A stretch of DNA of 62,252 nt, counting the filler, from Sphacelaria rigidula (Eukaryota), in NCBI GenBank assembly GCA_964200075.2. It is 6 parts of 6 records of this genome, joined end to end, with 100 filler letters (N's around TTAATTAATTAA, not from the genome) between each part and the next. Parts side by side here need not be neighbours in the genome. Positions count along the whole stretch, not along the records: positions 1 to 10,293 come from CAXNAA020006773.1; 5 more parts are not named here. One strand, given 5' to 3'. Below are positions 1 to 61,441 of this stretch, piece after piece. A model generated the notes under the pieces. It had not been told where the DNA came from, ran no database searches, and saw only the letters and a list, made by a program, of their open reading frames with translations. How positions within the stretch are numbered: position 1 is the stretch's first letter; each line of letters opens with the position of its first letter. The position numbers and the translations under genes are program-made.

Positions 1-134
1 TGAGATCTCTACGCCAAGGTATGCATATTGGTCTACGATCGGCAGTTCCTCGTCTCCCATCTTCCACTTGAACTATCCCCTCTCTCAACCACCCGTATCT
101 CTCTAGGTGTTCTTCCTCGTCTTCTTTGCGAAAA

Positions 135-715
135 GGGAGGGTGAGGGGGGTTGTTCTCATGATCATGCATCCCATAGTCATGAGCCTGTTGACCTCGCAT
201 CCCTACAAAGCCAGGACGGAGCACGCCGGATTTTCGCCGGACCCGTCTCACAATCAACCACCAAGCGCGAAGGGCCGTGGTGTGTTCGGCGGATCGCATC
301 AAGAGTGAGGTGCATCCTGCCAAGATTGTTCGGCCCGAAGCCTAATGATCGTCTTATATTTGGGTTACAGCCTACAATGAGTTGCTTCATTTTCTGGCAT
401 CGCCACTTTCAGAGACAGTCCTGGCTTCCACACTGCCTCATAAGTGCCTCACCATGTAAACACTACGCAGTATGACCATCCTCTTTACGCGAAATTGGGG
501 TTCTCCCACACCGCACAATATGATCTAGCTCGGGCCACGATCACGGTTACCGCCAAAAAAAAAACGCAAGCGCGGATGAAAAGCGGTAACCTAGTTGCCT
601 AGCTTACGAATTGAGTGGCGTGTTCTACAGCGCCACTACCAACCGACGCCAACCCCATAGGGGGTCCGTCTCTACAAAACCGGGACGGAGCACGCCGGGT
701 TTTCGCCGGACCAGG
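135..715 (-). mobile_element. Family B non-autonomous retroelement, long copy 1 (5' module + body + repeated module + LINE-like 3' tail + C-rich end)
   Basis: Colinear with 4294-4863 over its whole length. The motif (CCT)GGTCCGGCGAAAA.CCGGCGTGCTCCGTCC occurs twice (about 203-245 and 672-715). On the minus strand it ends in a C-rich tract. Confidence 0.75.
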
Positions 716-854
716 TCTCAGAAAACACACACATACACGAAAAATACGATACTGAGAGGTGCTGACGACGAAAGACGTACACGATGGTGCCTCAATGGCT
801 CATAGGAAAAGGGATGGGGCACGGAGCGAAATGGCTGCAAGATGAAGCCCCCTG

Positions 855-956
855 ATGATTGATGATTGATTGATTGTCGCACTTTGACTGGCCCTCCAGG
901 GATCCAGCAGTGGTCTCATGATAGACGTACCCAACAAAAACTAAACTGGAACACTA
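855..956 (-). repeat. Non-LTR retroelement 3' end with (CAAT)n tail
   Basis: Reverse complement matches 5222-5323 (GGGAACGTCTATGA...AAGTGCGACAATCAATCAATC). Confidence 0.6.
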
Positions 957-1726
957 GCCAAAGAAGAGGAGGAACAGAGAAGGAAAAAAAAGTCGAACAG
1001 AACGACATGGTACACTAAGACGTGACAAAAAAGACTAATAGAAAAAATCAACAAATGCAAAGCACAAAAAGAGATGGCCGAACTAAAACATAAAGAAAGA
1101 AAAATAAGAGGGAAATACAGAGCAAATGAAAGAGAATAAAATAATATGATGAACAAAAAGGGAAAAGCCCAAGGGATTCAGAGCAGCAGAGTAGATACAG
1201 ATACACACCAGTGGGCACCACAGAGCCACCCACAAGATCATAATCAACAACCAATATGAGCAGACAGGATTCTTCGATTGGCAGCCCTCGACGCAGCAGC
1301 CTCTCGCTTGTCCGCGCGTCGCCAGAAACCCCTAGTTGATGGATACTTCCACTCCATGAGAACGTTTTGCAGAGGTGGTACATGAGATGTTTTTCGTGTT
1401 CTTCTCCGGGAGGTGCAGTGCAAGCTCGGAGAGTTTCAAGTACGACTTTGCGAACCTCCGTCTCTCCGCGAGATGCAACAGCGGCACCTATGTACAAATT
1501 TCCAAGCGAATCATGCCACAGACAAAGAAAGACTAACCGATTGCTCCTATATATGATATATATCATGAACCAACATGCGTAAAATAGGAACACATTTCCT
1601 CGTGGAAGAGAAATCTACAGAGAAGAGGCCGACTCATTTGCGCCATACACTTATATATATATATATATTGCGTTTCCCTGTGGAACAATAATCTAACGTT
1701 CGCGCTAGTTCGCTGCAGCCCCTCAC

Positions 1727-1820
1727 CAGCCAAGGGGCGCTGCGCTCAACGCTGTCCCTTCCGACCCGCTCCGGGTCCGTGCCCGCCACGACTTGCGTGA
1801 TGAAATCTGGGTTAGTACAC
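1727..1820 (-). CDS. INTS1: INTS1-like exon (CTNPDFITQVV...SAPWL)
   Basis: tgcag acceptor, GTGAG donor, 94 nt; the phase fits the preceding exon. Confidence 0.8.
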
Positions 1821-4800
1821 CTGCAATAGCACGTAGCAAAAGCCGCCCAAGGTCTAGTCAAGCTGTCTAGCCAACGTCTGCTAGACTAGAATCATAAGTT
1901 ACAAACGTGCGCATTTGGAATCACTTCGACTCGGAGCAACTCGAGGCTCTCAATTTGAAGCTCGAGGTGAAAGTGCTTCTTCACTTTAACAGCCGAAACT
2001 GAGAGAGTAGCATGGTAGACCGAAACAAGGAAAGAAGGCACTGTATCTAGCACGGCTCAGACGCTACAGATATCGAAGCGCGTGCTGACCAGATCAGCTA
2101 GGAGTGTAACACCACCCAAACGGGAGAAGAAACATTGTCTCCACTCGAACAACCGAAATGAGTGTATCGAATGAAGCGGAAGCAACCGTCAACATGACAA
2201 AGCCGAGATGGATGACTCCAGGAGGGCGAAGGGGAGGGGGGGAGGGGGGGCGGGGGGGCGGGGGGACCTGACCTGCGCAGCTCTGCCCCGAGGCCCAAAT
2301 CGCGATCCAGCTCCTCCACCCGCTTGAGCACGTCGTCAGGAGGACGTCGAGCAGGCATGGCTACATCTAGTTTGATGTAATCGTCATATCGGACCTGAAC
2401 CCACGACATGATTCACAATCGGACGAGGGGGGTCGGGGGGTGAGGGGGTGGGCAATGCTGAACCCTTGGGCAGGAGAATCTCGTTTCGGAACAAGATCGC
2501 CGTCTCATCTTCAACGCCAACATCCCCGACGCCACAAGTAGCTAAGTGCCGCCTCTGTGTTCGCAAGCATCGCATATAGTAGTAGCATTTCAAATGATGC
2601 CAATTCCACGGATGACCACCCCTGGCGGCAAACGTTTAAAATCCAAGTAGGCGCAAACGTTATGACTGCACATCAATACAGGTATAAAAGGGGGAAGTAT
2701 ATGCACAACTTGGACACGACGTACGACACCCAAGCGACGATGGCAGCAGTTGTGCTCTGTTGACATTCTTACGACAGACCAACTAATCCATAGATGGAAC
2801 ATACTGCTCTAAAAGACTGTATTTAAGAGCATGTTCTGCTCCTTCAAGATCATCCCAACCGTTAACATATCACGCGAAATGGAAACAAAGTTCGATTATG
2901 CCGTGAGTGCCGAGATTTGGGATAAGCTGTAGTTGGATCGATGGTGATACTTTCATACAGAGCGGAAACAGCATATACCGAGCTTCCCTTTTACCTTAGC
3001 CTCCATGGGGTACGACTACGGAGCGGTTCTACGGTAGGGATGAAAAAACTGTTTTCGAGACTCTGCGCTTTAGAAGCCTCTCGATGACGAACATGTGGGC
3101 CTTAGTGCGCACAGCCTCAGAAAACGTTTGGGCTAAAAAGTGCACCCATTGTAGTATTACTCTCTGACTCATTGTGAAACTTGAATATGTACGACTGAAC
3201 CAGGTCATCCTCAGTAGATCAAATATACCCGCACCAGTGTGAGCTGGACATAATGCCGTCCAGTACAGATCAACCCCACATAAATTTCCAGTGCGTGAAG
3301 AACAGATGATCAAGTTCCTGTACCGTACGTGGGGAGTGCTTTGATTCCAGCCCTGCTTGCGCGGAAGTTTGCCCCCGAATCAATGGTTGAAACGACAGAG
3401 CTGAGACTTCATACAAACATGCAAATTGGCCCTGGATGTTATAGCTGCTTCACTTCAGCCTAGCTCGCATGGATATTGGGAGTTTTAACCAACGCAAAAA
3501 ATATAAATGCTGGGGCTTTTACAGCAACGTCAAAGTTGGTGATAGACATTGGGGACGGTAAAGGCAACGTACCTCAGGTGCGCCGGGCGGGTGCCAGTCA
3601 GGGTCAGACTCGTAGTCGTCATCCTGGATTGGCAGCAACTGGTCTTCATCCGAATCTTCTTCAACGTGAACCTGTTTAATCGTCTTCACCAGCCTCCTGC
3701 CCCGCTTAGAAAGCTGAACATGGGCCAGAAGTAAGAAGCATCGGCCGGCCGCGCACACACAGCATGGATCAAGAAACACGAATGGAGAATAAAATGCCAA
3801 GAAAAATATTCAAGAGAATAGAGAACGGCCAACACCGAGTAAATCTGAAGAGATGCACATGACCGCAACTTCTCATCAATTGGGGATGGGGATGGCACGA
3901 CAACATGGTCAATCTACATCATCCTAGTCTACCATGCTGTAAGTTGTTTTTTTTCGGGACTTTCCACTGAGCTGTTGTCGGGGCACTTTCCTCCATTTCC
4001 AGGGAGTACGATGGGGCCTAGAAAGTCTCATGCGGTCACAGATCACACGGATCAAATGCCGCATGTTTTCCGTACAAGTCGGGCCACGACTACACCGTCT
4101 GTCATGCATCTTGCGTGCATTGTACCAGCCTTTTAGTGGGACGTACATTCGCACAGAAGAAGCAATGGTTGAATGAAAAATGATCAGTACAAGCCGCCAC
4201 ATGATTGTGTGCTTCGGTAGATCCCGCGTGAAGACGAGTTACAGAGGTCGCCGCGTAACGCTTCAGCGCTGACCTCTCAGGTTTTCCGCCGTGAGGGAGG
4301 GGACGGGGGGTGTACTCATAATCATGCATGCCGTATTCTCAAGACCATTGACCTCGCACCCCTACAATGCCGGGACGGAGCACGCCGGGTTTTCGCCGGA
4401 CCAGGCTTGCACTCAATCACCAAGCGCCGTGGTGTGTTCGGCAAGTCGCATGAAGGGTGAGCTGCATCCTGCTAAGCTTGTTCGGCCGGAAGCCTGCTGA
4501 TTTTCTTGCACTTGGATGACATCCTACAATGACTTGCTTCATTTTCTGGTATTGCCACTTCCGGAGACACTGCCTATACACTGCCTCATGGGTGTCTCAC
4601 GATTTCAACACCACGTGGTACGATCATCCCCTTTGAGCAGAGTTGAGGTTCTCCCACGCCGCACAACATGATCTAGCTCGACTACCATCATAATTTCCGC
4701 AAAAAAAAAAACGCAAGCACGCAAAAAAAAACGGTAACCTGGTTGCCTAGCTTACGCAGTGAGTGGCGTGTTTAATAGCGTCATCGCCAACCGACGCAAA

Positions 4801-7800
4801 CCCCATCGAGGGTCCGCCCCTACAAAGCCAGGACGGAGCACGCCGGGTTCTCGCCGGACCAGGCTAATTTCTTCAGGTGTAGAGAAGAGTGCGAAACACG
4901 TGTGTGTGTGTGTGTGTGTGTGTCATGGGGTTTCAAGCTCGCTTCAATATACACGTATTCCATACTCCAAACCGCTAAATGTGGATTTTCTCCGCATGTG
5001 GGATGAATCCAAAAATATCAACACCATTCTCTTCACAATCATCTAGGGTATACCCATGTGTTTTTCCGAACACGCAATATTCCCCACGATGCGATTCACG
5101 CCTACTTGGCCTTACTGCCGACAGCTTTAGATGCTACTTCAGATATTGACGAGCTCGGCATTACCCTTTGTCAAAGCGTCCAACATTCAGGTCAAAAAGC
5201 ACGCGCTTGTTTTCTTGAACGAGTGTTTCAGTTTTGCTTTTCTTGGGAACGTCTATGATGCAACCACGGCTGGACCCATGGGTGGTCAGTTGAAGTGCGA
5301 CAATCAATCAATCAATCAATCAAAAACACACACACATTCCGGATCAGTTTTGAATGAAGCGATGATAGTACCAGCACAGCTACCTGTACACTGGCTTGCC
5401 TCGGCAGCAACCTAGCTGATTCAGCGGGCAAGCAGGCCTTCTTACATTCCTTGCGTTGCTATACTGCAAGGGAGAAGTTGTCACTTTGCGGGCTGCACAT
5501 TATCTCAAACCTTGGAAGATGACCAACTCAGGTAAAAAGAAAAGCGAAACGACGGTTTCTGGGGTGCTCAAACTTACTGTTGTCTGTGGTCAGTCTCGTT
5601 TTCGCCATCCGATGGATATCTTCACAGCTACCTGTCTTCGATGTACGCATTGCAAACAGGTGGGCGAACCACCCTGTACAACTTTCCAAGGTTGTGTGCT
5701 TCAGGGTATACGCGGGAGTGGGAAATCTTCGGGTAGAACACCAAACAATACCGGTATGTGCAATGTGCACCGAACATTCCTGTATGGTTCGGCAGATTAT
5801 CGAGCCCTGTTTCCAGCACTCCGATATGATTCGCAAGGGCACTTCACCGCTAAAAAACGTATTTTACACCTCCGTAAATATCCGAATTTCAGCCGGTATA
5901 CCGTACAGAGCACGACATTTGGGTATTACTAGTTTTCGGATCACTTCATGTGAGACAACGAGTCGAATAGAGTCACTCAGCTAGCCTTTGTCGTTAGCTA
6001 CCTCAACGATTTCTCCTCGGCGCTTGCGGGGCGCTAAAATCTTCGTGAATTAGACAATGCGAGACGGCCGATCGATGGGTTCATTGATCCCTCAAGACTA
6101 CATGCACAGACTAACTAGCTGTGAGGAAGCGGAGGAGGGGTTAGTTACATGTACGACAAAAAAAAAAGTTACGTCGTCGAAAGCGCGAGGACGCGAAAAA
6201 CAAAATGAATTCGAAGGGATATGAAGCAGTACGGGATTGCCCATCCAACCGATAGCAAAATGTGTAAGAAGGCGTGCGTACTATACCAGGGGAGAGATTG
6301 ATGGCTGTACGGCTTCATTAATTTCTCGACACCGATGGATGGTGCCATCATTCACATCAATCACCTGAACCGTTTCTCTCGGGCGCTTGGGCGGCGGAGG
6401 CGGCTGCGGAGGGCGGCGACGCCTCCGAGGCCGTGTGGCGAAGATCTCGTCCACCGCCGCACGCTCCTCCTGCCTCACTCGTTCATCCGCAGCGATCATG
6501 GCCCCTGCGCCGCCTCCGATAACACCGTTCGCTTCAGATGCACTTCCTGAGAGCAGATGTCCATGAACGTACGTGCAGTATGGACCAGACGAAGGAAACA
6601 ATGAAAATAAAGGTACCCTCACATGAACGTACTGGGCGAATGTATGTAGGCCGAATATCAATTTATATCGAAAAAGGCAAATGAACGGATGAATGACCGT
6701 ACAGAGAGTACGGCCCCCTCATGCTGGATGGCTAAATATATGAATTACTGAATTACTGAAAAGAGTATGGATCCTTCATGCCCGCGTGGAATGGAAGCAG
6801 TCGAATGTTACATGAACTGAAACGATGTACGGATGGGCCCATGAACCAATAGTTGGATGAATGGACCAACACATGATGGGGGAAACAACAAATATGATAC
6901 GTTGTGTCAGTTCGTGCCGGCATTTTGGGGTCCGGGACGATGGGCTATACGACAAGTAGGAAGTCCACAAAATTAGTCCACCCCTCGATCTATGCAAAAC
7001 TAGGGACGAGCAACTGTGATACTCCCTCTGTCCCATAAGTTAGAGCCGAACTTGTCATACAAGACCTTAACCGTGCGCGATGCTTTTTTCGCCCGTGTGT
7101 TGTTTTCAACAGGGTTATTCGGCGTTATTTTAGTGAAATACATGTTTTTTCTGTTCGCACATTATTCCAGGTGGGCATACGGCCAGGAAAAAAAAAAAAG
7201 TCGTATTTCGCCCCCATCCCGGGGGCATGTGTGTGTGTGCATGTGTGTGCGCGCGCGCGAGTGGCACTCTCTGCCGCCATGGCGTAACGCCGGCCAAACG
7301 ATAGTTTTCTACCACGTTCGCGAGGGCGGAGGGGAAGGGAAGGGGAGGGGGGCGGGGTGCTCGTGGGCGAGTCTACGGTGTTGTGTGTGGGTGGCTGGTG
7401 TGTACAGGTAGAATTTTTCGAATTTCGGGATTTTTCGACAACTTTCTTCAAGTATCATCTAAATTAGGCAATTTGGGGACAATTTGGTCCATAATTCAAT
7501 ATAAATAATTCAGAGTCTGAGTTACTTACATATGTTACCGTGAGCGCCGCTCCTGCGATGATACCATCTGCGCCCCAGTTCGGTCTCAACGTCTGACAGA
7601 AGAGTCGATAGTTTCGCAAACGCTCTGATGATATTACAAACAACGTACCTGCTACGCCGATCCTTCCGGCCTGCCCCTCACTGCCTCCACGCCCGCCCCC
7701 CGGCCGGGACTCCCGGCCATCCGCGCGCCGCACGGGGGACCCCGATCTCCGATTGCCATTGTTCGCGGATTGCAGCTGCGGCATGAAGGCGAAGGCGTCG

Positions 7801-10393: not shown

Positions 10394-10411
10394 CCCACGC
10401 GCCCCCCCCAC

Positions 10412-10489
10412 TGCCCCGGCTCGAAAGGGATGCGTGGTCAATGGTCAAATGACTAAGGCAAGCAACAAAGGAGTACGCCCCCCCCCCCC
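10412..10489 (+). mobile_element. Family A LINE 3' end with oligo(C) tail
   Basis: CTCGAAAGGGATGCGTGGTCAATGGTCAAATGACTAAGGCAAGCAACAAAGGAGTACG followed by a C run; same as the end of 54711-55240. Confidence 0.8.
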
Positions 10490-19904: not shown

Positions 19905-20000
19905 GGGGATGGGGGGGGGAGGAGGAGGGGGAGGGGGCGTACTCATTTGTTGCTTGCCTTAGTCGTTTGACCGTTGACCACGCATCGCTTTCGAGACGGG
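19905..20000 (-). mobile_element. Family A LINE 3' end with C-rich tail
   Basis: Reverse complement of CCGTCTCGAAAG.GATGCGTGGTCAA.GGTCAAACGACTAAGGCAAGCAACAAATGAGTACGCCCCC. Confidence 0.8.
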
Positions 20001-20686
20001 GTGAGAGGTGGAGGGGTTTAACGATCATATTACAATGTCTTCTCTGAAACGAACGCATCCCCCAAGGAAAAAATACGAAAAGACCCCGGAATATTGGATT
20101 TTGTATCACGGATTTTCAGGACCCGTACCAGGTAGGGGCCTACATTTGTGTTACTGTTGATGAGCTTTGGCCTCAGCCCAAACCTAATATCTGATTGGTT
20201 TCCCCCTTTGAGTGATGATAGTTTCGGTGGCGGGTGGGGGGTATTTGGGGCCATTTCTTTCACGACATTTTACCAGAAATCGTCGTTGAAAGCAGCGACG
20301 TTTGTTCGAACGCGCTTGTTACCAATAAGACACACTCATTCATACCACTTTACACCGTTTTCACCCAAATACAAACGCACCGCGGGTAGTTCGATCGTCT
20401 GACTCACCTGTGAGCCTGTGTTTTTCGTGCAATCAAACACCCCCCTTCCTCCCTGTCGTAGCGTCACTCATTTGTAGGATACGGGGTGTAGATATATAGT
20501 ATGCGGGTTGGGATCGAAAGAAGAACAATGTTCGAATTCATCGTTTCGTGAGGAGAAGGGTTCGTGACGTCAGAAAGTGTAGATTATTTCACGGTTAGGA
20601 CGAATCATCATGACTACGAATCGCCAAATCCACGATTTTTTTGGCCGGATTGCCCAAAAAGGAAAAAAAAGTTGACCGCTGGTCCA

Positions 20687-20786: not shown

Positions 20787-20979
20787 CGGCGAAACAGGAC
20801 GGGGATAAGCTATGTAAAAGGTTTTTGTGTAATGTATGGAAGAAACGTAATGAGCTGAGGAAGAAACGTAACGAGCGCCGGAATGTTGGAGGTGTCTGTA
20901 TCAAGAGAAGAAACGGTGGTCCGTCTCGAAAGAGATGCGTGGTCAATGGTCAAACGACTAAGGCAAGCAACAAATGAGT

Positions 20980-21010
<31 letters not shown>
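20787..21010 (+). mobile_element. Family A LINE 3' fragment with about 30-nt oligo(C) tail
   Basis: Encodes AKQDGDKLCKRFLCNVWKKRNE...NVGGVCIKRRNGGPSRKRCVVNGQTTKASNK*, followed by a C run. Confidence 0.8.
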
Positions 21011-22651: not shown

Positions 22652-23070
22652 CAGCCTGGATCCGTTTTTGAGGTTCAACATTAGGGTGATGTTTAACTCG
22701 AAAACAGTGCTTTCCCTGACCTTAAGTCATGACCAATGAATTTCATATGGACGACCTCATGCCCCCCGATCTCCTTGAAACTTTTTTCGGGGTTGCCCGT
22801 CCTCCGTGCCTCCAAAGCGCATATGCGAAAGCACTAGTTTCGGGCTTAAAACATCCCGTTTTTCGCCCCGATATCGAAGCGAAAAGATGCTTTCGCACAT
22901 ACGCTATGGGGGCACGGAAGACCGGTAACCCTCAACAATAGTTTAAGGAGGTCAGGGGGCATGAGGTCGTCCACATGAAATTCATTAGTGATAACTTCAG
23001 GTGAGGGAAAGCACTGTTTTCGAGTCGAACCTTACCCGAATGTTGAACCTCAAAAAACGAATCCAGGCTG
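22652..23070. mobile_element. Foldback MITE / long inverted repeat (arms about 185 bp)
   Basis: CAGCCTGGATCCGTTTTTGAGGTTCAACATT... mirrored by ...AATGTTGAACCTCAAAAAACGAATCCAGGCTG. Arm fragments also end contigs 5 and 6. Confidence 0.9.
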
Positions 23071-31179: not shown

Positions 31180-33102
31180 AATGGGGCTCCGGTGCCATGT
31201 GGCTTCAGCAAAAGTGGGCTGACGACTTTATGCTGTCTTCTGTGTCGCCTTGACGCAGTATAGTTGACCATTGGGGAGGATAAGTTGATCCATCTTGATA
31301 TTATTGTGAACACCGAAATCCGGATCTTTTCATGGGAGCTGTGCCTCTACCATTCTCTGTGGCTTTCTTTTCTCCGTAAGTTCAGAGTTTGTCCACACTT
31401 GCCGCCAGGTGAGATGAGATACAAAGCTACGCTATCGACGGTGGCGTGGTGATGGCACCGAGTGCAGGAGAACGAGAGCTACTCTTGCCACTATCACAAG
31501 CGATGCACAGATGTGGGGGTAAATATCCGCACACGCGGAAGCCTCTAGGGGCTTGGTCAAAGGTTCAATTCTACACCTACCTGCCGAACATTCCACACAT
31601 GTGATGTATCAACCATCTGCAGTATCAAGAGTCATCCATGAGTGTAATCTATTCTGAGGCCGTCGGACAGGGGTGACGTGTTCGCATGTCGTGAAAACCG
31701 GCGAGGGTTGGAGGTGCTCTATTGCGCCCGTAGCCCAAACGGTTGCCCTAATTACTCATCGTCAAGGCCATCGATTGGGATGCAATTTTTTGCATCATTT
31801 GCGCCAAGACGGCAGCTAAAAACTCGGTAAACACATTTGTTTATCTCATCGGGATTCGAGTTTTATAACAAATTAAGTGAAAAAAACATGGGTTTTTTGC
31901 GATTTCCTCGATGACCACAACTCCTTTGGTTCTATCCTCTTTCCAGATTGTAGCTTGGACACATACACGCTGGTGAGTAGCCTAGGTACGCCGTGGTTTG
32001 TAGCCCGAGACGACGAAAATGGGAAATCGTCAAGTGGAAACCCCACTCAAATCACAAGTACTTGGGGGGATTTCACGGCGTGTATAATCAGGGGATGAAC
32101 GAGATCTGCGGTCTGTTCGTGCTTTTGGTCGGTGACACTTTTTTGTCTCATTTTGGGGGGTCAGGCGCACCCATAACAGTATGGAGAGTGCAGCAAAAGA
32201 GGAGCCGTAGGGCACCTCCGACATTTAGTCGCGTCTTGCCTGTCCCTGGCGTCGCCGTCACTTGTCGAAGGACCACTTTTATCCCTGACAAATATATATA
32301 TATATATATATATTTACACACGAGAGTTTCTGCGGCTTCGTCGCCACGATCAGTGGATCGACAGCCAAGGTACATGATCCCCAGTGGTAGCTGTGTGCGT
32401 GCGTAATGACAAAGGGCATTATACGTAGTTTGGAGAAGAAGCCGCAGCAGCTCATGGGCTGAGCACAGTAGAAAACCTGGATCATGGATATACTTTTTCA
32501 GTGAAGTTGATGACACTTCAACAGATGACCTACATTTCTCACCGTCAAAGGGTTGATGAACCGGCAGGAAGACTTTGTCGTGTTTTCTGATTGTTTTATG
32601 AGCATGATGCCGGTTCGATTTCAACAAAAATAAGTTGTTTGTTTCGTCTTCAGCCCGAGGAGCAACATGTATAATGAGCACGTACCAAGGGTTAACACAA
32701 GGCATCACAATCAAAAGTGAACCTGAGGAACTGACCGCCCCCGCAAACCAAGAACCCATATAGTGGCAACGAATTTGACCATTTGACCGACATGATAGGT
32801 TATCTGTTTTCAATCGGCATCTGTTACTCGGACTTCACAAATTACAGCGTGGTCGGATTCACCCTTTTGGGACCGGATTTTCCAGAAAACAGTGATTTGC
32901 ACGCAGGGGCCTTTGCATGAATCGACATCATTTTTAATCGTTTCCAACTAACAATGTTGCCGATTGATGCAAACGCCCCTGCGTGCAAACCACATGTTTC
33001 TTGGATTCTAGTCCCAAAGGGGTTCAAACAGTACAAATGAAGTGAAGTCGAGACCATGCGATATTCATGCATGATAGTCGTGTGCGTTACGTGTAACACA
33101 GA

Positions 33103-35273: not shown

Positions 35274-35386
35274 CCCCTTCCTGGTCGGGTGAAAACCCGG
35301 CGTGCTCCGTCGTGGCTCTGTTGGGATGCGAGGTCAATGGTCTGATGACTACGGCATGCAAGATCATGACTACACCCCCTCCCCCC
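35274..35386 (+). mobile_element. Family B short copy (about 110 bp) between C tracts
   Basis: CCTGGTCGGGTGAAAACCCGGCGTGCTCCGTC...GCAAGATCATGACTACACCCCC. Confidence 0.8.
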
Positions 35387-37751: not shown

Positions 37752-40700
37752 TATTGGGGTTGAACCAAAAAATAGAGATCGTCTGCCAGACGCTACAATA
37801 TCTAGATATTCTTCCGGCACTCTGTTAGAAGAGTCTGAATGAGAAGACGTGGGCTGCAGCTGAGAGCCAGTTTAGCCCGCAGACAGGAGGAGACCAACTT
37901 GAAGCGCACAGTAGTGGGAGACGCTCCGTGAGCTGGAAGACGCACAAGTCAGGCAAGAGTCTCTCCGTGAAGTGTTTGAAGCATAGCCGACAAGAGCTTT
38001 CGAGTAATTCAGATACCCAGTAATGCGGGATCTACGTAGAACCGGGGGTTGGGGTGACGTACGAGTACCGACAGTCAAGTGTGTGCAAATGTGATACAGT
38101 ACCCTTGATCATTCTCATTCATCTACTCACCACCTGATCAGCGCTCTCCCAAGTTATAGTAGGACTTGGGTGCTCTTCAATAGAAGATCTGAAACCATTA
38201 CCCTGTGCCTGAGCCAAGGAATACACTAGTGATCAATCGGTTGGGCAAATATGGCTAGGAACGATGGTAACGCCCCGTCTTCGGAATAAGGATTAGACGG
38301 GCTCACGAGTCAGGTTGAAGGTATGATGAGTCTGTTCAGTGGTCAGTTTAGCACACTGACAGAGATGGTTAGAGATGTACAGTCTACACAAACTGTAATA
38401 CAGAGTAGAGTAGATGGCATCGAAGATAGAGAGTCCGGAGGCGCGAGGTGGAGTGGCGTCGTCGAAAGCGAAGAGGATCAAGCAACACAACAACACCAGG
38501 CTGACAACTCAGCCAGACACAGCACACCTCACGGGCGACGACGTAGCCGAGAGGGCGAGCAGGGAGCTTCGAGCGGGAGGGACTACAGGACAGCAAGCGA
38601 CGGAGCAACGGGTGCAGATCCCGTAAGTGAGTCCGTCGCAATGTTCGGTCACGACCGACAGAGTGTCCAAAAGATTTCTGGGGTCCCGGTTTTCAAGGCA
38701 ACTGGACCTAAGTTCTCTGGAAAGGGTTCAGAGTTCAACCACTACAGTGACGAACTAATCATGTTTGCTAGGAGCGAAGCAGTTGATTGAGTGTTCACTA
38801 TGTCAGAAGATAGGACATACGATGTGGAGGTGGGAAACAAGGCGTTATCCTTACCTCATCTTGAAGCAAGGCACGGAAAGGGCACTGTAGCTGCAATCGT
38901 GAGAGCGAGGCAAATGCTGGCGGCGAGTCTCGAACATAAGCGGGACCGTGATGTTTTGTTCCGAATTCCGTCTCCAGCAGCCGTGTGGCGTGAATTGAGT
39001 GATTTCTACATTCCCAAGACCAACGGAGCTACATTAGCTCTTCTAGAAAAGTATGATCACGTGAAGATTGGAGTTCGCGATAATCCTGTTCAAAGACTAG
39101 TCGAGATGGAAGAGGTGGCGAGAGAGTTACAATCACACGACACCAACATCATCCTGACGGAGGCGCAAACCCTCCTCAAATTTGTCAATGTGCTTCCTTG
39201 CGAGTGTAACTATCAAAAACAGGCGTTGGAGGAGCGCGAAGGTCCGATCACGAGGGAAGTCGTAGTGACGTCGGTTCGAAAACGTTTTGAATCGGCACTT
39301 TTCAAGCAGGAACTCGCCAAGGGGAAGAAGGCTTCCCCGGGCGACCAGACCTTTGCTGTCAAAGGCCATCCCGGCAAACCTAACGATTCACACCGGGAAG
39401 GTAAACCGGGAAAGACCCAGAACCCAGGCCGCGCAGGTGATGGGGGGCAGGGCAAAAACAACCAGTCGCCGGCTTAATCGTCAACGAACCAGTCGGGGGC
39501 TGCGACGCCGTGGAGGTGCCACGTTTGTCAGAAGATGACCACACATCGGGCGAGAGACTGTCCAGACAGGCGTTGTGTTGGGTGCGGGAGGAGGGGACAT
39601 AGTTTGATTGACTGTCAGAGTACTGTGGAGGACGCGGCGACTGTGGAGGACGCGGTGATTGTGATGGGCGTGGCGGAAGACGTGGTGGACGACGACTCCG
39701 TCTGTTCGGATGCTGATGCAGAAGTGTTCACTAGCCTCGACATGACGGTGGACGAGGTCAACACAGGCGAGTATGCGTTCGCAACTGGGAAGGGGAATGT
39801 AGAGCAGTCAGATGTGGGCGAACCGTGGGTACTTGACACGGGGGCCACTTCGCACTTTTCCCCTGATTCAAGTAAGATGACGGACTATAGAAAATGCAGT
39901 GGAAGGGCACTACGGTGTGCGGGCGGTGGTACCTACCCGATCGTAGGAAGAGAAACTTGGCTCTATCTTTACGATCTGACGGACGCGATATAGTCTTGCA
40001 TTTGAAAAATGTAGACCACGCACCTTGTGTCCGTCACCATCTGTTGTCACTGACCAGGATGTCCAATGCGGGTCACACCTACGTTGGGTCTAGTGATGGC
40101 TTCCGGGTTGAGTAGAAGTCAGGCAATGCCCTGAAGATCCCCGGTCAACACAGACAGCTATTAATGTACGCCCACTGCATCTCTCCAAATGGTCATGACA
40201 AGCATGCGTCAGCATGCGCTGTGATTGCCCCGGGGAAACTTCCCAACCCCCAAGTTGAAGATATATATGATTTCCATTGCAAACACGCGCATGTTCACGA
40301 GGACCTGCTCCGGCGGACTGCAAACAGCTCGGAGTGGAGCTGCGCGGTGAGTTGAGACCGTGCCGAGGATGCTTGGAAGAAAAGGGACTTCGGCAACCCA
40401 TCCCAAGATCGACCCATACACGAGTAGTTGAGCCAGCTTCCAGAGTGTTTGTTGATCTCACAGGCCCAAAACCAGTTAGATCTCGGGGAGGAAAGTCGTA
40501 CATGATGATAGTACGCGATGATGCTCGCGGCACACTAGATTGTTTTTTCTGCGCACAAAGGATGAGTCCGTACAGTACTTTAGTAAATACATAGCAGAAA
40601 TTCACCCACGAAAAATCGAGAAGGTCCGCAGTGATGGTGGAGGTGAATTTTCGGAGGGGGCGTTCGAGGAGCTATGTGATAGAGAGAAAATAAAACAAGA

Positions 40701-42820: not shown

Positions 42821-43446
42821 TTTATTGTTGGCGTGGGCACCTTCTTGGACACTGCGTGGTCTTTTTTTTCACTTGGAGATGCCAAAGACGTGTAGTTTTC
42901 GCACCGGCGGGGGGTGGAGGGGTATCTGACATTCCAGTCTACGGGGGTACCTCAGGAAGGATCAACAAAAGTAGGCCTCAGCGAAAACATCGTGTGTCCG
43001 GTGTCATATATTGGAGGGTCGGGTGTGCGGTGTATGTATTCCACGTAACCCATACGTATCACAGGTGTATTCGCCAAGAATTTCGCACACAACCATTTGA
43101 TTCGGATCTTTGGGAAACACAGACATATTCGTCCCCCTAACATGCACAGAATAGTGCAAGAGGAGGGTGCAGTTGGACGGTTGAGGATGAGGATGCCCGA
43201 TGATGCTCCCGGACAAGTGCTGGGGATAGAGAACGAGTATCGTGCGTAACCACTCTATCATACCGGTTCATCTGCCACACTCCAACCAACATCAATCTCC
43301 ATGAGCAACCGATGATGGTGGACATCCACTGTGTCATGTGTAAGATCACCGGCTAATGCCTTTTCATCTGCCAGAGTCAAGTAAACGAAGATGTCCCCGA
43401 GCGAGTGCTGTTGTTGTATCACGATGGTAACGTGTAACCTCTACGC

Positions 43447-43892
43447 TGTAGCCCAAAATGGTGCCAAGCCGTTGCGTTTAACGTGTAGGACACTGGATGA
43501 TGATTATGTGACAGGGTACACTGTGGATGAAGACCCTCACCGTGGAGCCTTTGATGTGTAGTCAGTGGGCTGCTGTTGCTTACTTCGTGTGGAAGCTCCA
43601 AGAGAAGTTCTTACCGAGCGTGAGGCCAGTGGATTCTGGAGAAGTCCCTCACTGAATAGCCCTCTTGTCCAGATCGTCTGGTAGAAGCTATAATATCCAG
43701 ATATTGTTCGGCACTCTGTATGGAAGAGTTTGGGCTGAGGTACGAGACGGGTAGCCTGTACAGTTTGTGCCCAAGGAGATAGCGCTGAAAGCACTTGGTT
43801 GAAACGAGAGGAGCAGCTTGCAGCAAGACCAGCGTTTGGAGAGAGCTCCGCTGGCGACGATCAAGTCAGGCTTGGCTCAAGCGACGGCAACA
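43447..43892 (+). repeat. Gypsy 5' LTR
   Basis: Matches 48914-49149; 7-bp imperfect terminal inverted repeat. Confidence 0.9.
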
Positions 43893-43928
43893 CCACTGGT
43901 ATTGGGTGAGACGTGACATCCGCCGCAA

Positions 43929-46900
43929 TATGGTAAAGAGTGGAACGAAACAGCTAGTCGCAGGCTTTCGGGGCCTATTTCGATTAAAAACAGCGGTTGC
44001 GAGTCGCTAATGAAGAAGGAAGGGTGACACACGCGCAAGTGCCCGTTGGGCAGTTGATTCCTGCATACATTCGTCGATGTTTCGAAATCCTGTACACAGA
44101 CGGACGAACAATGGCTGCAGCGGAGCTCGTAGATGCTGTGAAGCAGCATGCTGGGTATACCACCACCGGTGGCCGAGAGGATAAAACTCGGGCTGCGGCT
44201 GATATCAAGCGCATTCTCAGGATGGCCCAAGACGGACCATTGTCTGTACGGGATAGGGCAATGACAGTCACTTCGAATTTGGAACAGTATTTTTCAAAAA
44301 CATTGTCGGTCGAAGCCATGTACAGGGCTCAAGACAGAAGCTGGCTGCCAGGTCCGGCAGAGTCAGTTTCCATTGCCATAGTGGACGGCATTGCGCCTCC
44401 GGTGGTTAAGGCTCATGTCAAGACTCTCTTGATGTACGAGGAGGGTTAGAAACGAAACCCGACTTTAGTGATGAAGACGATATTTGAGGCTGCTGACAAG
44501 TGGATACTTGTAGAATCTGTAGAACGCCGTGATGGTGGGGCAAATACGGGTGGATCTCGCCACAAACAACAACAGCAGCAGTCGTCTGCGCGAGGGACAT
44601 CTACTCGCGCATGCTAACACTGTGGCGACCATGAACATCGTTTTAAGGATTGTCCCAAGCCTCGCGCCAAGGGCGCTAATCAAAGTAGCCCGCAAGATCA
44701 GTCAGGATCCAGCGGCGGTCGTCATGGAGGAAGAGGTAGATGTCATGGTGGACGCGGGCGCGGTGGCCGCGGCAGCAATCGAGAGGCGACGGATGGTGGA
44801 CCCTCCACTACAGCACCTTCGGCTGCATCTTCAGAACCTGCCTCAGGCTCTTCTGGCCCGTCCATGCCGGGGCGGGTAGTTTATGAAGGAGGGAGTAGTG
44901 CTTCGATGGGTGGTGCTGGAGCGGACAGCTCGTAAACCTTCGGCCAGGAAGGATCCGTGTCTGGTATCGCTCCCGCTACTGCAACGATGGCAACGGCGCC
45001 GTCTACATATACGGAATCTTGGTCGGGGTGGAACGCCGATTCGGTGTCGACGATGCCACTTTCTGGAGCGCAGCCTTGGCGACAGGTGACTGTAGCCAAC
45101 AATCAAGGTTCCCCCCCGATAGGTGTAGTGCCTGTCGATCGCACCGCACAAAGCCCCCGTGCTGACCTTTCTTTACCAGGTACGGTAGGATCATAAATGG
45201 CACGAGTTATTCTGGACTCTGGGCCCGCGCTTACGCCTATCAGCGTGGGTTTGCTGGCTCAGTTGTCTTCAGTCTGCGGCAACGCTCAAATACAGTTGCC
45301 GTTCCAGAACGGTCCCCAAACCGCTCACACCGCTACGGGAGAGCCCGTGACGGTAACACACAAGACGGTCCCAATCTCCGTAAGTGTACGCACTCCGTGG
45401 GGGGCTGTGCAGATGCCACCCATCACCTTCGCTATTATGCCCGGCAGGGAGGATGCCATTCTCTTTGGCATGGCAACGATAAAGCAGATCGGCATCAATT
45501 TGTATCCTCTGGCGTTGGAGAACTTACGCCCCCATGCCGTGCCGGTTCAGACGGACGTCGAAAACTCTAGTCATCTAGCGGCTAGGCGGGTGAGCATCTC
45601 TGTCGATGCGTTTCAAACTGAGTGTGTGAAGGAAACTCATGCGGATGAGGCAGTGGAGCGATTGGTGGACCGGGGCCCGGACATCTTTCTGGACCCTGCA
45701 GAAGAGAAGGAGGGGAGAGATCGCGCGCTGGCAGATAGCGTGCGACAAGCCGAACAGCAGGGCCTGAGCGCCGAGGGCGCTTATCGTCTTCGCGATAGTT
45801 TGTCTCGTCGCGTAGATACTTTTTTTAGACGTGCGCTGTGCGGTGATCCGCCAGCGCGCGTAGAGCCGATGTGCGTGCAACTCAAGCCGCAGACGAAGGC
45901 TGTAAAAGCCAAGCCAAGGCGATACGATCCGGTGAAAACGGGTGGCTGGCTGCATGCATAGGGGCGTTGGTGGCGTTTGGTTTGGTGGTGGGGAATATAC
46001 AAGCGGTGTGGGCGAGTCCGGCGATGGCGGTGCCGAAGAGAGATACTTTCCGTTTGGTCAGTGACTACCAAGCGGTGAACGCGCAGGTAGAGCAGTCTCC
46101 GGGGGTAATGCGGAGTCAGGAGGACATGCGGGAGTTACTGGGAGTGCGATGCTTTGGCAAATTGGACTTATTGGCAAATGCCTTTGGCACCGGACGCACA
46201 AGAGTTCTTCACGATCGTCACACCAGAAGGTCTGTTTACGCTAACTCGTGTTCCTCAGGGTGTGCTGAATGCTACATCCTATTTTCAAGGTGTGATGACC
46301 GATCTTTTGCAAGGATTGGACTGCAAAGTGTGGGTCGATGATCTTTTTTATTTCGTCGATTCAGAAGAAGCGTTGCCGACATTGTTGGACGAGATTCTCG
46401 GACGTTTTGGAAAGTGTTGGCCTGTTCGTCGCAGCTCACAAGTGCACGTTTTTTTCTCGAGAAATAGCTGGGGTGGCAAGGTGTACTCGCACGGAACTGT
46501 GTCTCATGATCCAGTACGCATTCAAGGCCTGGGTACAATGCGACGTCCTCAAAATGCAAGTGAGCTGATGCAGTTTCTGCAGGCGGTCAATTGGTTGCGA
46601 ACTTCGCTACCTCGCATGGCAGAAGTAGTAGCGCCGCTTCGTGCGTTTTTTGAACAACTGATGGCAGGGGTGTCGCGTAGGACCAAGCGGGTGGCGCGAA
46701 ATCGTGTCATTCCGGAGGGCGCCTGGACGGGGGATCGGGTGCGGGCATGGCGTGCAGCGCAGGACTTGGTGGCGCAAGCGGTCCCACTGTATCGTCCTCG
46801 TCCTGGGTGCGTTGTGTTGATATTTCCCGATGCAACAGACTTTCACTGGGGGTCTTTTCTGACGCAGGTGCCTGTCACAGAGTTTAACAGTGGCATGGCG

Positions 46901-48832: not shown

Positions 48833-48913
48833 TTTGGCGCATGCTAATTCGGCTTCGTGATTTTTGTTGGTTGTCAAGCTCATTCGTTTGTCTTGAACTC
48901 GCTTTGGGGGTGC

Positions 48914-49149
48914 TCTAGCCCACAATGGTGCCAAGCCGTTGCGTTTAATGTGTGGGATACTAGATGATGATTATGTGACAGGGTACACTGTGGATGAAGA
49001 CCCTCACCGTGTAGTCAGTGGGCTGCTGTTGCTTACTTCGTGAATGGAAGCTCTAAGAGAAGTTCTTCTCGAGCGTGAGGCCAGTGGGTTCAGCAGAAAT
49101 CCCTCGCTGAATAGTCCTCTTGTCCAGATTGTCTGGCAGAGGCTATAAC
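48914..49149 (+). repeat. Gypsy 3' LTR, truncated
   Basis: Homology to the 5' LTR stops at GCTATAA. Confidence 0.9.
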
Positions 49150-51962: not shown

Positions 51963-52044
51963 CCCCCCCTGCTCCGTCTCGAAAGGGATGCGCGGTCAAT
52001 GGTCAAACGACTGAAGCAAGCAACAAATGAGTACGCCCCCCCCC
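51963..52044 (+). mobile_element. Family A LINE 3' end flanked by C runs on both sides
   Basis: CCCCCCC-TGCTCCGTCTCGAAAGGGATGCG...ATGAGTACG-CCCCCCCCC. Confidence 0.8.
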
Positions 52045-52723: not shown

Positions 52724-52817
52724 CCTGACGAAAACCCGGTGTGCGCCGTCCCGGCTTCAGGGATGCGATGTCAATGTTCATATGACTATGGCATGCAAGA
52801 TCATGAGTACACCCCCC
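52724..52817 (+). mobile_element. Family B short copy
   Basis: CCTGACGAAAACCCGGTGTGCGCCGTCCC...GCAAGATCATGAGTACACCCCCC, preceded by a 30-bp C-rich tract. Confidence 0.8.
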
Positions 52818-53057: not shown

Positions 53058-56000
53058 GCATGTGCTAACGTCTAGGGTATTGTGGGCCGGGAGATTGCAT
53101 CGCGTCTTTTTTTCGGGGGTGGGTTGGGGGGGGGGGGGGGAAGGGGGGTTTTTTTTTTTCGCGGTTGTACTGGGGGTGTCTTAAAGGGGGGGGCGGGGAC
53201 CAACCGCTCAATAAATGAGCTGGAATCTGTCAGAATCCACGAGTCAAAATTGTCTGCCATGTTTGTCGATGATGATGTGTTGATGGTGTTGCTGTTGCTG
53301 TTGCTGATACCGTTTTTTGTTTTTGTTTCTTACGGTATATTGGTATGGTTGGTTTACGTCGTTTCGGAGAAAGCGAGTGCTCCTGCGTCCTGTGAGGGGT
53401 CCATATTTTATGATGAAAGGAAGCTGACGGGGCGATCTTTGTCTCTTTCTGTTTGTCTCTTTCTGTTTCTCTCTCTCTGTGTCTCTTGGTGTCTCTCGAG
53501 TGGGTGTGCGTGCGTGCGTGTGATCCCGGAGAGCAGAAAGCCGTTTTGCGAGTTCTGCGCGATGGTGTTATTGCCGTCGAACTCCTTTGACATACAAAGC
53601 TGTTTGTCTACCCAAGCCACCGTGTTCTGTATACGTTGTGTACGTATTTTTTTCTTCACTTGACTGCTGCTCACCACGTCATGTAGTGAGACGACCGACC
53701 CTGCCCTGGAAAGTGAGAACTATCACATCGCGGGTCACGGAAGGTGAGCCGCGGGGACGAGGCTGTGTGTTCGTTATAGTATATGTCATACTCCTGTGTG
53801 TGTGGAGCTCGATGAGGCCTCGGGTGAAGAATATATAGAGAGGAGCGGAGTAGGCTGACGGTGGTGGGTCGGGGGGGTGGGGAGTACCCTGGCCCATCCT
53901 TGGAGTATGACGAACTCCAGTGACGGGAACGGATGATGACCCGAGGTGACGGTACATCCTGTCCGCAAGGAACGTTCTAGGAAACCCTCAGGGGCACGAT
54001 ACTTGCTGCATGTAGGCGTTCTAGGACCGGGGTCCAACCCGGTACATATCATATTGTAACATTTCACGCTTTCACTGTGACTGCTCTTTTGCTTCTCGAC
54101 ACGAATCAAAATGTTGTGGGTGCCCCGTGTATATTCCCCGTGCCCAAGGCCATACCGAAATACCCGTACTCCACGTTTGTACGCCTTCACGATGATGTGT
54201 ACGTCACGCGCCGGAAATCTCGCTTACTAGTATAATTTAAGGAACCAGAAGGTGTAATGAGTCACCGTCGTGTCTAGGTGGCGCTTAGAGAAAATGCTGA
54301 TTTCTCAGAGTGCTCCCCCCATCGAGCCTACGACAGCTCGGACGAACTGCAGCGTAATCGGTGCGGCCATCCAACCACCTTTCTGCCCTGCGTATATCTG
54401 ATTTGTAAATGTCGTGCGAATTTTTGGGCCCCGATTTTAGCTTAGCGTCTATCTATAATCAAATGCAGGGCAGCGCTGGGCAAGGGGAGGCGCGCATTTT
54501 GTTGAGCGCTTGGGCTTGCCCGGCCCGCGCCCAGTTGATCCATGATTTTCCCGCACCAAATGAGTCCGTGATCTGATTTATTATTTGTGCATTACCCATC
54601 CCATGTGAGGGCTGTGTGTTACGAAGATTTTTGATCGAACTGTCCTTGACGAAAAAACATCCAGTCCTTCTCAACAGGATTACTTTCTTTCCTCACCCCC
54701 CCTCTTCCCCATGAAAACATATTTGCATGGCTCAATAGACGCGGCGAAAAATTTGAAACTGCGATTTCGGGCTGGGGGTCTGGACCTGCTAGAAAGAAGG
54801 AAGATACAGTAGACAGTAGTCGAGTGGAGGAGGAAGTAGATGCACGGAATTGCCCCCGCGCAGCAAAGCAATAGAGAGCAGAAGTGATAACGTGGCAGAA
54901 TGTGAACTATACAAGGAGGAACGGGACGTGCTAGAGGAAGAAATGCGGGACGTGAACAAAGGTGGCATTTGATTGTTCGATGCACTAGACTGTAGCGAAA
55001 AAACCATGGCTATACTAGGAGATAGATGGTGGCCACAGACGGCGATACAGGACGGGGATGAGATATGTTGTGCAATGTATCGAAGAAAGATACTGAGAAC
55101 CTAAATGTTGTAGGTATCTCTATTAGGAGCAGGACCGGTGCTCCGTCTCGAAAGGGACGCATGATCAATGGTCAAACGACTAGGGCAAGTAACATATGAG
55201 TACAACCCCCTCCCTCCCTCCCTCCCTCCCTCTTCCCCCTTTCAGCGGGCGCGTCAGATAGACAGACTGCGGGTGGCGAACTCGTTCACAGAGCTGGTCA
55301 GGATTGCCAAGGAGTGGGTAGCCGACTACGGTCCGATGCCCCTGCCGGTGCGGCGTCTCTTCAAGCGCACACACCTGCACACCGCCTGTCGCCTCTTGGG
55401 CGTGTCGGAGGTCCGCCTCGAATATCTGCCCTCTGCGGACCGTGGCACTATGCTGATGGACGCGGGTCACGGCGAAGCTGCGGCACCTTCGCCGACTGCG
55501 ACAGGAAAAGAACCGGGCGCTCCGAACGGCGCAGGCGGGGTCGGTGCTGGTGCGGGTTTCAAGAGAGTGAATGGGCACGGCGGGTCTTCGGGAAATTCTG
55601 ATGGTGGAGGTAGTGCAAGTGGTGGTAGTAGTTCGTTGGAGCTCGGGGTTGAGAGCGTTCAGGTGGGGGGGGCTTTGACGTTCAAGCCGGCCACGGTTGC
55701 CGAGGCGCAGGCAGCGCTGAAGGCTGCGGCTGCTGCCCGTGCGGAGGGGGAGGCGAAAAAGTTGGTACCGGTCGCGATGTTGAGAGGGCCCGACGTGACC
55801 AAAGATCGATGGGAGGTAGGTCAGGCATTTGTTTTTGTTTTTCACGTCATGTCTTGATTTGTTTTTTTGTTCACAAATAGTTTCTGTTTTCTTGTTCCGT
55901 TGTTCTTTTCTTGGTTAGCCTAGACACACACACACAATGAGGGAATTATGATGAAAAAAAGTACACGCAGACAACTACCTCGTATGGTCGTCATCGTACA

Positions 56001-61332: not shown

Positions 61333-61441
61333 TGAAAAACGAAAGTGTGGGTAACTCCACCGATTGCTTCAACACAAATACAATCGCCAAAAGTGCTTTT
61401 GTCGTTGGAACTATTTACACGAAAATGGTTAAATTCTAGAA

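Follow-up and report, generated by a model that had tools for sequence, protein, structure and literature searches.

The window described here, a stretch of 62,252 nucleotides from the genome of Sphacelaria rigidula, contains two long and two short copies of a repeat, family B, together with truncated remains of a partner LINE (Table 1). Family B is a non-autonomous retroposon of about 563 nt, with a fixed 3' end followed by a C-run and with C-rich target duplications. The two long copies, both on the minus strand, are 80% alike over 583 nt, and neither has a clean target duplication. Each carries twice the motif that the initial annotation had put at about 45 nt; it measures about 48 nt and lies at 715 and 246 in copy 1 and at 4863 and 4405 in copy 2. 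The short copies had been said to begin at this motif as well, which holds for the one at 35280, whereas the one near 52724 begins 6-10 nt inside it, without CCTGG.

Table 1. Family B copies, their parts and LINE-derived sequences in the window (consensus positions are those of family B)
Feature	Position	Strand	Remarks
Family B, long copy 1	152..717	-	13% from family consensus; then C-rich run to ~135
Family B, long copy 2	4311..4865	-	7% from consensus; then C-rich run to ~4294
5' copy of the ~48-nt motif	4818..4865	-	25-nt head plus duplicate of the first hairpin of the LINE tail; in copy 1 at ~668-717
Homologue of the LINE 5' head	4763..4806	-	consensus ~60-103; in copy 1 at ~615-658
Main internal 5'-start hot spot	4600..4605	-	consensus 260-262; without CCTGG
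3' copy of the ~48-nt motif	4360..4407	-	begins at consensus ~463-469, where a minor, discrete class of copies starts; in copy 1 at ~201-248
LINE-derived 3' tail, ~70 nt, putative RT-recognition element	4311..4383	-	in copy 1 at ~152-224
Family B, short copy	35280..35374	+	begins at CCTGG; C-rich flanks
Family B, short copy	52727..52811	+	C-rich flanks
Partner LINE 3' end, 5'-truncated, decayed	54711..55208	+	C-terminal coding part and tail
Partner LINE 3' end, 5'-truncated, with C-run	20789..20990	+
LINE tail alone	10409..10480	+
Further LINE tail	19935..20001	-
Further LINE tail	51967..52038	+
Partner-LINE coding fragments	1..134	-	directly after the C-run of copy 1; tblastn for 72-1, rest by eye

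Family B is an ordinary and very common mobile element that uses the copying machinery of a larger element. The 24-nt core of its motif has 1245 exact matches genome-wide, against 0 for the reversed control. Copies sit in C-runs and are mostly 5'-truncated, to a variable extent, while the 3' end is constant; these traits, together with the LINE tail, bear out the earlier designation as a retroelement. Target duplications of variable length were recognized by eye in copies L011, L013, L020, L037 and L045, and were scored in 5 of the 24 rows of a random set (40 unselected stretches, 393 kb), from which one row was dropped as a LINE tail, leaving 23 copies. Over the family B copies Rfam gave no tRNA, 5S or SRP match and ARAGORN reported 0 genes, in agreement with the lack of tRNA A and B boxes noted before. 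Classical Pol III SINEs are likewise short and abundant with a LINE-derived tail, but they have internal boxes and heads derived from tRNA, 5S or 7SL RNA, whereas the head of family B is partly LINE-derived. A likeness to the Alu domain of 7SL RNA, for which Rfam offered no support, was dropped.

In its last ~70 nt, family B has the 3' tail of an autonomous LINE that encodes endonuclease and RT and is present in the same genome. Compared with three LINE tails from metagenomes, the family B tail is 83% identical over 52 nt (two tails) and 90% identical over 39 nt (one tail). At locus L098 the tail profile has a match, with an RVT_1 match about 1.1 kb upstream and a C-run behind it; the C-run replaces poly(A) in this LINE, and the tail itself lies inside the last codons (~20) of the LINE. 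Full-length relatives of the partner RT are single EN+RT ORFs of 1328-1360 aa. Names were attached to 17 of its 33 matches, 16 of them from Ectocarpus sp., and the partner RT is 52-64% identical to most of these named Ectocarpus matches. With its single AP-endonuclease and RT ORF and its (C)n 3' end, as described for RTEX-1/2_Ec32, the partner LINE is of the RTE-X type, a clade label taken from the description in the Ectocarpus table. The LINE tail pattern was found in 0 cases among viral contigs.

The 5' end of family B is related to the same LINE. Its nucleotides 63-103 match six LINE heads (E 3e-6 to 1e-4), and the LINE 5' end is fixed across 25 aligned heads. The segment concerned (consensus ~60-103) comprises the hairpin 3 of the initial annotation and the 3' strand of its closing stem. 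The 5' module thus consists of a 25-nt head, which could be traced to no source, a duplicate of the first hairpin of the tail, and a piece of the LINE head. Because the tail is a LINE tail and nucleotides ~60-103 are a LINE head, the "5' four-way junction" is a mosaic. A covariance model of the 5' module yielded 26 matches in 546 kb, all but one of which (E 0.36) were family B modules or LINE heads, and in these 546 kb the motif was not found in unrelated elements. The folded parts of family B are pieces of a larger mobile element and not signs of a new self-cutting RNA. Judging from this homology, the first ~50 nt were probably gained by duplication of the element's own 3' unit (25-nt head and first hairpin), which would then have been placed ahead of the LINE-head-derived body; the motif would be present twice by descent, and not from selection of two equivalent junctions.

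Family B is very probably a bipartite non-autonomous derivative of a C-tailed (RTE-X-type) brown-algal LINE and the counterpart of RTEX-N1 of Ectocarpus. In excerpts of PMC12477816, RTEX-N1a is given as 607 bp long and sometimes tandem, with C-rich target duplications (supplement file 1), a 60-bp 3' end matching RTEX-1/2 at 83%, and weak homology to the 5' end of RTEX-2. By this description, RTEX-N1/N2_Ec32 resemble family B in being non-autonomous elements of ~600 bp in thousands of copies, with C-rich target duplications, a 3' ~60 bp that is 83% LINE-like, weak homology to the LINE 5' end, tandems and a shared 3' unit of ~100 bp; the length is 563 for family B and 604-607 for RTEX-N1. The internal duplicated motif and the hot spot at 260 are features of family B that the same excerpts do not mention for RTEX-N1/N2. 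Bipartite non-autonomous LINEs (RTE-N, RTESINE, Bov-A, NARTc and RIME), as portrayed in parts of PMC5786205, also lack an ORF and join a LINE 5' piece to a LINE 3' end, with 5' parts added by fusion. Unlike in these, a duplicate of the 3' unit stands ahead of the LINE-head piece in family B, ~360 nt of the body were traced to no source, and the tail is a C-run, with the shared part inside the last codons of the LINE. The value of these results is modest: they provide a concrete anatomy, with the 3' unit of the element duplicated ahead of a LINE-head piece, for a kind of element whose 5' region was left unexplained by the Ectocarpus TE study.

Since it is the 3' tail of an autonomous LINE, the 3' module of family B is most likely an RT-recognition element. 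The initial annotation had offered this function as one possibility and a self-processing motif that defines the 5' ends as the other; the shared tail favours the former for the 3' module, and the latter finds no support. By analogy with established LINE and SINE biology, the single endonuclease-RT protein of the LINE would bind the folded tail, nick the G-rich strand of a C-run and prime reverse transcription on the C-rich end of the RNA; the synthesis would end prematurely at scattered positions and at some hot spots. The ~70-nt candidate RT-recognition RNA would be a small, testable substrate for the question how such LINEs target C-runs.

Regarding the fold, it is indeed possible to draw the stems named in the initial annotation, and across 32 copies 93% of the 724 cells are paired. 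However, differences between copies, which had been thought mostly to keep pairing, do so in only 113 of 276 changed stem cells (41%), whereas 59% break it. The share expected from the mutation spectrum is 34% (nominal p 0.014, with cells that are not independent), and changes on both sides of a stem keep pairing in 3 of 9 cases. The two modules do not form the same four-way junction as had been proposed: RNAalifold gives the 5' module another fold, with 0 compensatory pairs of 24, and the LINE-type tail folds as a three-way junction of closing stem, hairpin and one extended arm. Pair counts for hairpin 1 in family B and LINE tails were left out, as automatic alignments shift this hairpin. Covariation did not exceed the control (0.096 against 0.097 after shuffling, with 249 of 500 shuffles as high), in a comparison of low power because the copies are ~7% from consensus and come from one genome. 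The z-scores for folding did not agree among themselves: the 5' module scored -0.18 and -1.22, the 3' module +2.06, -2.98 and -1.15. There are weak signs of constraint on the motif, namely its lower divergence and the modest excess of pair-keeping changes.

The fixed CCTGG 5' end of the initial annotation is not retained; the element begins 2-4 nt ahead of CCTGG, with a frayed end: of 30 near-full-length copies counted by hand, 18 have AG and 8 have TCAG in front of CCTGG. Among the 23 copies of the random set the starts are dispersed, though with hot spots: 1, 3, 56, 260, 260, 261, 261, 261, 269, 291, 295, 320, 359, 430, 436, 446, 485, 513, 516, 517, 521, 524 and 536. Two of them are at the 5' end, five at the CCTGG-free hot spot 260-261, and none at the internal CCTGG (consensus 460-470). 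An internal CCTGG start class nevertheless exists and is minor: in run X20, 382 contigs depart from the stretch at position 4407 of the window and continue into C-run flank, loose ends occur at 4403-4407 in run X5 from a second organism, and tandem joints of ~103 nt occur. At 260, 570 exact words lie just downstream and 142 across, a drop that may be inflated where the assembly breaks off within long copies; among the full-length rows, 6 of 31 match each word (hand count). An older subfamily without the 5' motif, suggested by five copies starting at 56-71, is left unproven, since the older-type sequence matches the genome exactly only 7 times and copies headed by the motif carry old-type alleles too.

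Under the reading of family B as a LINE derivative, transcription most likely starts at its true 5' end; the element and the LINE both tend to begin with TCA, which may be an initiator-like motif. For the internal hot spots, RT stopping just 3' of stable helices is the most likely cause. A predicted closing helix of 9 bp (105-113 with 246-254) ends shortly before 260-262, and a stop fits better here, with the helix end at 254, than at 463-469, immediately upstream of which pairing probabilities reach only moderate values. Against the preferred reading count the discrete internal-motif start class, the untraced 25-nt head, the lack of a clean target duplication in the two long copies, and a motif substitution of 6-8% against ~10% in the body, although in a shared-variant test (1 of 97 sites against ~23 of 439) the difference was not significant (p 0.10).

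As a less likely alternative, which deserves some weight, the ~100-nt 3' unit would be a short element in its own right that carries a start signal within the 25-nt head and from which the long element was built as a composite. The head would then be a small internal promoter or a protein-binding site, not a ribozyme. Alu dimers, which arose from monomers, offer an analogy. The discrete loose ends in two organisms, the tandem joints and the low divergence of the motif would agree with such a unit, as would RTEX-N2 of Ectocarpus (188 bp), which according to excerpts of PMC12477816 has its 3' 100 bp in common with RTEX-N1. On the other hand, the short copies start over 460-469, several of them carry the junction letters of the long element and not the TCAG start, and the internal start class is absent from the random set. 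Variant sites are common to short and long copies, with no diagnostic alleles at 24 listed sites. This alternative differs from the preferred reading only in the origin of the short copies.

It is improbable that the motif, or a structure near 260, frees the element from read-through transcripts as an unrecognised RNA that cleaves itself or is processed by a nuclease. L1Tc is reported to carry an HDV-like ribozyme at its 5' end. Ribozymes of this kind are also reported from the 5' ends of R2 and RTE-clade elements (parts of PMC3774820 and PMC5786205), and family B resembles them in its structured-looking non-LTR 5' end and recurrent start. The same motif stands at the full-length 5' end and at the minor internal start class, the start at 260 is sharp, and copy L208 ends at 259, followed by a short C-run. 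Ribozyme-made R2 junctions can be frayed, so that the frayed 5' end is compatible with cleavage. However, the two hot spots, 260 and the internal motif, have no sequence in common. The self-processing motif of the initial annotation is unsupported because the 5' ends are dispersed and the strongest internal start is without it, because covariation is at shuffle level and the two modules share no fold, and because most of the 5' module traces to the two ends of the LINE. Of the three outcomes that the initial annotation had named as refuting it, two have largely been observed: a lack of covariation, and 5' ends that are dispersed, though with hot spots.

That no ribozyme consensus could be fitted was borne out by Rfam. 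In window positions 1-6000, five weak matches (E up to 5) included no ribozyme on the element, and the only two models overlapping copy 1, a box C/D and a cis-element, were far below cut-offs; over 18 loci (LINE heads, family B copies and two metagenome tails) there was no ribozyme match, and one weak sRNA model overlapped a family B 5' module (E 0.57). HDV-like layouts, which comprise five helices in a double pseudoknot with a catalytic C in J4/2, were mapped by hand at the motif and at 260 and rejected (P1 could form if one mismatch is allowed, P3 has a single bp and P2 is absent). A pseudoknot between 5' end and loop was likewise rejected: of its 41 changed cells 6 still pair, where 12.8 would be expected. 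The hammerhead or retrozyme core (CUGANGA and GAAA, three stems) has 7 matches in the window, with 3.8 expected, and none in its family B copies; the CTGATGA-like site of family B belongs to a variable loop, as one of its variants. We doubt strongly that family B RNA is cut at 259/260, and perhaps at CCTGG too, by a hitherto undescribed processing element, be it self-cleaving or nuclease-guided. If it did, the cuts would release RNAs of ~300 nt and ~100 nt that retrotranspose as preferred units, and brown-algal C-tailed retroposons would have a 5'-end mechanism unlike the HDV-like, hammerhead and twister ribozymes; the importance of the hot spot at 260 would be much greater.

That family B is a non-autonomous Penelope-like (Chlamys) element or a retrozyme, with the repeated motif as a pseudo-LTR, is hardly credible: Chlamys elements favour (C)n targets, are 5'-truncated and have pseudo-LTRs and non-autonomous partners (PMC8557442), and they occur in Ectocarpus, but the family B tail belongs to an AP-endonuclease LINE, which largely refutes this origin, the repeat marks the beginning of the 3' unit and is not a truncated tandem copy ending at the 3' end of the element, and the 3' end of Ectocarpus Chlamys-1 is given as (A)n in excerpts of PMC12477816.

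Family B is a real, abundant and ordinary non-autonomous retroposon, whose remaining oddities are a 25-nt head and a sharp start at position 260 of its 563-nt consensus. Searching the 244-Mb genome yielded 7102 candidates at first look, 40 of them scored, and 393 kb of unselected stretches contained 23 copies or fragments, which extrapolates to roughly 14,000 copies (based on the initial 8.5-10 kb of each of 40 longer contigs). Divergence from the consensus was 5-13% in 30 near-full-length copies plus window copy 1; in the same set transitions amounted to 4-6% per site and a CpG excess was absent. The two long copies of the window are 80% alike across 583 nt, and the ~48-nt motif containing CCTGG was found twice in each, as the initial annotation had reported.

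Family B copies located in the window
Feature	Position	Strand	Basis
Family B long copy 1	715-152	minus	repeat comparison
Family B long copy 2	4865-4311	minus	repeat comparison
Family B short copy	35280	plus	repeat comparison
Family B short copy	about 52727	plus	repeat comparison

The 3' end falls at one and the same position in all intact copies and is followed by a C-run, and the left flanks are C-rich. Several copies (L011, L013, L020, L037, L045) visibly carry target duplications of ~9-17 bp that start in the C-run, and script scoring identified such duplications in 5 of 24 random-set rows; copies are often nested in each other's C-runs. Long copies begin 2-4 nt upstream of CCTGG (AG in 18/30, TCAG in 8/30, hand count), and 4 of the 30 near-full-length copies start inside the motif (hand count); these 30 were picked as the best full-length matches and alone cannot prove a fixed 5' end.

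Five further short repeats in the window are similar to the 3'-terminal 70 nt of family B. In locus L098, a profile built from both tails matched a site that lies about 1.1 kb 3' of an RVT_1 match and is followed by a C-run, and the five repeats are therefore 5'-truncated ends of a partner LINE. Truncation was heavy among 20 extended LINE copies, two of which attain about 4.7 kb. Thirty loci followed further upstream revealed a tandem array of 63-nt units and a fixed LINE head, starting with TCA after a C-run; 719 candidates were found and 25 heads aligned. The array, which lies between head and ORF (L154-L180), is variable, with 12-20 copies in two measured loci. Among the longer proteins, a protein-level search found 33 relatives, the best full-length ones being single endonuclease-RT ORFs of 1328-1360 aa; 16 of 17 named relatives were from Ectocarpus sp., which points to a brown-algal host. 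The LINE tail comprises the last ~20 codons of the ORF, with about 5 nt between stop codon and C-run. The putative 3' cis-element of the LINE therefore overlaps the ORF end, and the tail shows much stronger conservation than the remaining ORF (L221-L223, L098:3292-3356, P0002, P0004). Three metagenome LINEs showed 75-78% identity to the genome's own LINE across 865 nt and a nearly identical tail, 27 of whose 70 nt were fixed by the search pattern itself. The family B tail matched two of them at 83% over 52 nt and the third at 90% over 39 nt.

Consensus positions 63-103 of family B match six LINE heads (E 3e-6 to 1e-4). Over a greater length, a local alignment reached a score of 79 (300 shuffles: mean 54, maximum 75), so that only a ~44-nt core of this likeness is convincing. 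In its second half, the motif carries the LINE tail's first hairpin, with a 9-nt loop replacing GAAA. Judged by these likenesses, the 5' module is a mosaic made of one hairpin derived from the tail, one derived from the head and a short linker hairpin; its first 25 nt alone are without a matching source sequence. Both modules had been proposed to form the same four-way junction. In single-sequence and alignment folds, however, the 3' module is predicted as a three-way junction in which hairpin 1 and a single extended arm, whose tetraloop varies, join the closing stem, and RNAalifold favours a different fold of the 5' module, with compensatory pairs in 0/24. The best structural evidence obtained here concerns the tail, in which stems are kept while loops vary between family B and the LINE.

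Short copies had been thought to begin at the motif rather than at random truncation points. In the unselected set (393 kb; 24 rows less one LINE tail), starts were dispersed, at 1, 3, 56, 260 (twice), 261 (three times), 269, 291, 295, 320, 359, 430, 436, 446, 485, 513, 516, 517, 521, 524 and 536, and 0/23 lay at the internal motif. A class with internal-motif starts exists: 382 contigs of run X20 exit at window position 4407 into C-runs, loose ends occur at 4403-4407 in run X5 (a second organism), and tandem ~103-nt joints are present. Run X20, like X19, may stem from the source sample itself. The motif core has 1245 exact genome matches, about 75% of them of the 3' type (hand count, first 100), and a word across its upstream junction has 618; word match rates were 23/81 and 14/68, or 3/18 and 2/14 in copies not selected on family B. 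Roughly 10-25% of 3'-motif copies start at the internal motif, with wide uncertainty. Over window 4290-4890, X5 has related elements whose near-zero depth at 4500-4562 may point to a different middle, a gap in contig cover being no proof of one.

The hot spot at 260 was seen directly in the random set. Exact words numbered 570 just downstream vs 142 across it, a drop that assembly breaks may have inflated; by hand count, 6 of 31 full-length rows contain each of the two words. CCTGG is absent from the site, and a 9-bp helix predicted with confidence ends 6 nt upstream of it. In a single case (L208:8408-8611), a piece spanning 56-259 stops exactly at this hot spot, and a short C-run follows. More diverged copies (L041, L046, L136, L208, L028) start at ~56-71, with a LINE-head-like start and without the 5' motif; they possibly represent an older form, the word for which has only 7 exact genome matches.

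Family B shares with the LINE its tail and a piece of its head, and combines a constant 3' end, C-run targets and target duplications with truncation that is dispersed and also has hot spots. By analogy with established LINE/SINE biology, the LINE protein would recognise the family B tail, and target-primed reverse transcription would be primed at a nick in the G-rich strand. Pol II transcription may start at TCA, the first 50 nt may derive from a duplication of the 3' unit, and hot-spot starts could reflect RT stops.

That family B instead carries an unrecognised processing element, as originally suggested for the motif, is very improbable. In favour of the original reading, the motif is 6-8% diverged vs about 10% for the body; a shared-variant test gave p 0.10. 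Frayed junctions alone do not exclude cleavage, because ribozyme-made R2 junctions can vary (PMC3774820). Differences between copies had been said mostly to keep pairing. Across 109 copies, the seven stems contain 276 changed cells, and pairing is kept in 113 of these, where the mutation spectrum predicts 95 (nominal p 0.014, without independence of the cells); two-sided changes kept pairing in 3/9. The structure initially named pairs in 93% of cells in 32 5' modules, but no covariation above control was detected in them (0.096 vs 0.097 shuffled; 249/500 shuffles as high). Power is low because copies from a single genome mostly record post-insertion decay. Rfam gave no ribozyme match on family B or LINE heads, and no hammerhead core was found in the window's family B copies. 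A 5'-module covariance model run over 546 kb produced 26 matches, all family B modules or LINE heads save one at E 0.36. A hand-mapped HDV-like layout fails at P2 and P3, and a candidate pseudoknot is disfavoured (pairing kept in 6/41 changed cells vs 12.8 expected).

As a non-autonomous retroposon, family B fits RTEX-N1_Ec32 on each point described in PMC12477816, the comparison being by description rather than sequence. That element is ~600 bp long, with over 6000 copies, C-rich TSDs and occasional tandem copies; its 60-bp 3' end is 83% like LINEs, its 3' 100 bp are shared with RTEX-N2, and its head is of unknown origin with weak homology to the RTEX-2 5' end. RTEX-1/2_Ec32 each have one EN-RT ORF and end in (C)n (PMC12477816). 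The general kind is that of bipartite non-autonomous LINEs, as defined in PMC5786205. A Chlamys-type element, a reading prompted by PMC8557442, was rejected, as family B carries a LINE tail. Literature searches, with most subscription papers and Repbase outside coverage, found nothing on the origin of such a head or on ribozymes in brown-algal RTE-X elements.

Several further features of the window were recorded. On the minus strand, 4216-4288 gave a weak Rfam match to CPEB3 (HDV-like; E 1.8, 16 bits), which adjoins copy 2 on its 3' side, outside family B; a 7-bp first helix and CGAA can be drawn, P2 and P3 fit poorly, and among 223 loci examined it was seen solely in the window's own. It is probably a chance match. 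Positions 856-1330 and 5222-5322 are 3' ends of a different LINE family whose tail is (ATCA)n; loci L089, L093, L100 and L107 are similar. Decayed LTR retrotransposons occupy 43200-49350 and 38290-40000; one has direct repeats of ~260 nt as well as integrase domains, the other a copia-type gag. Long inverted repeats at 22652-23070, 32861-33023 and 60899-61428 are possibly MITE-like. At 55239-55857 (plus strand), an exon-like frame directly follows the C-run of a LINE tail; its match to a TRCF domain is weak and falls below the cut-off (E 1e-4).
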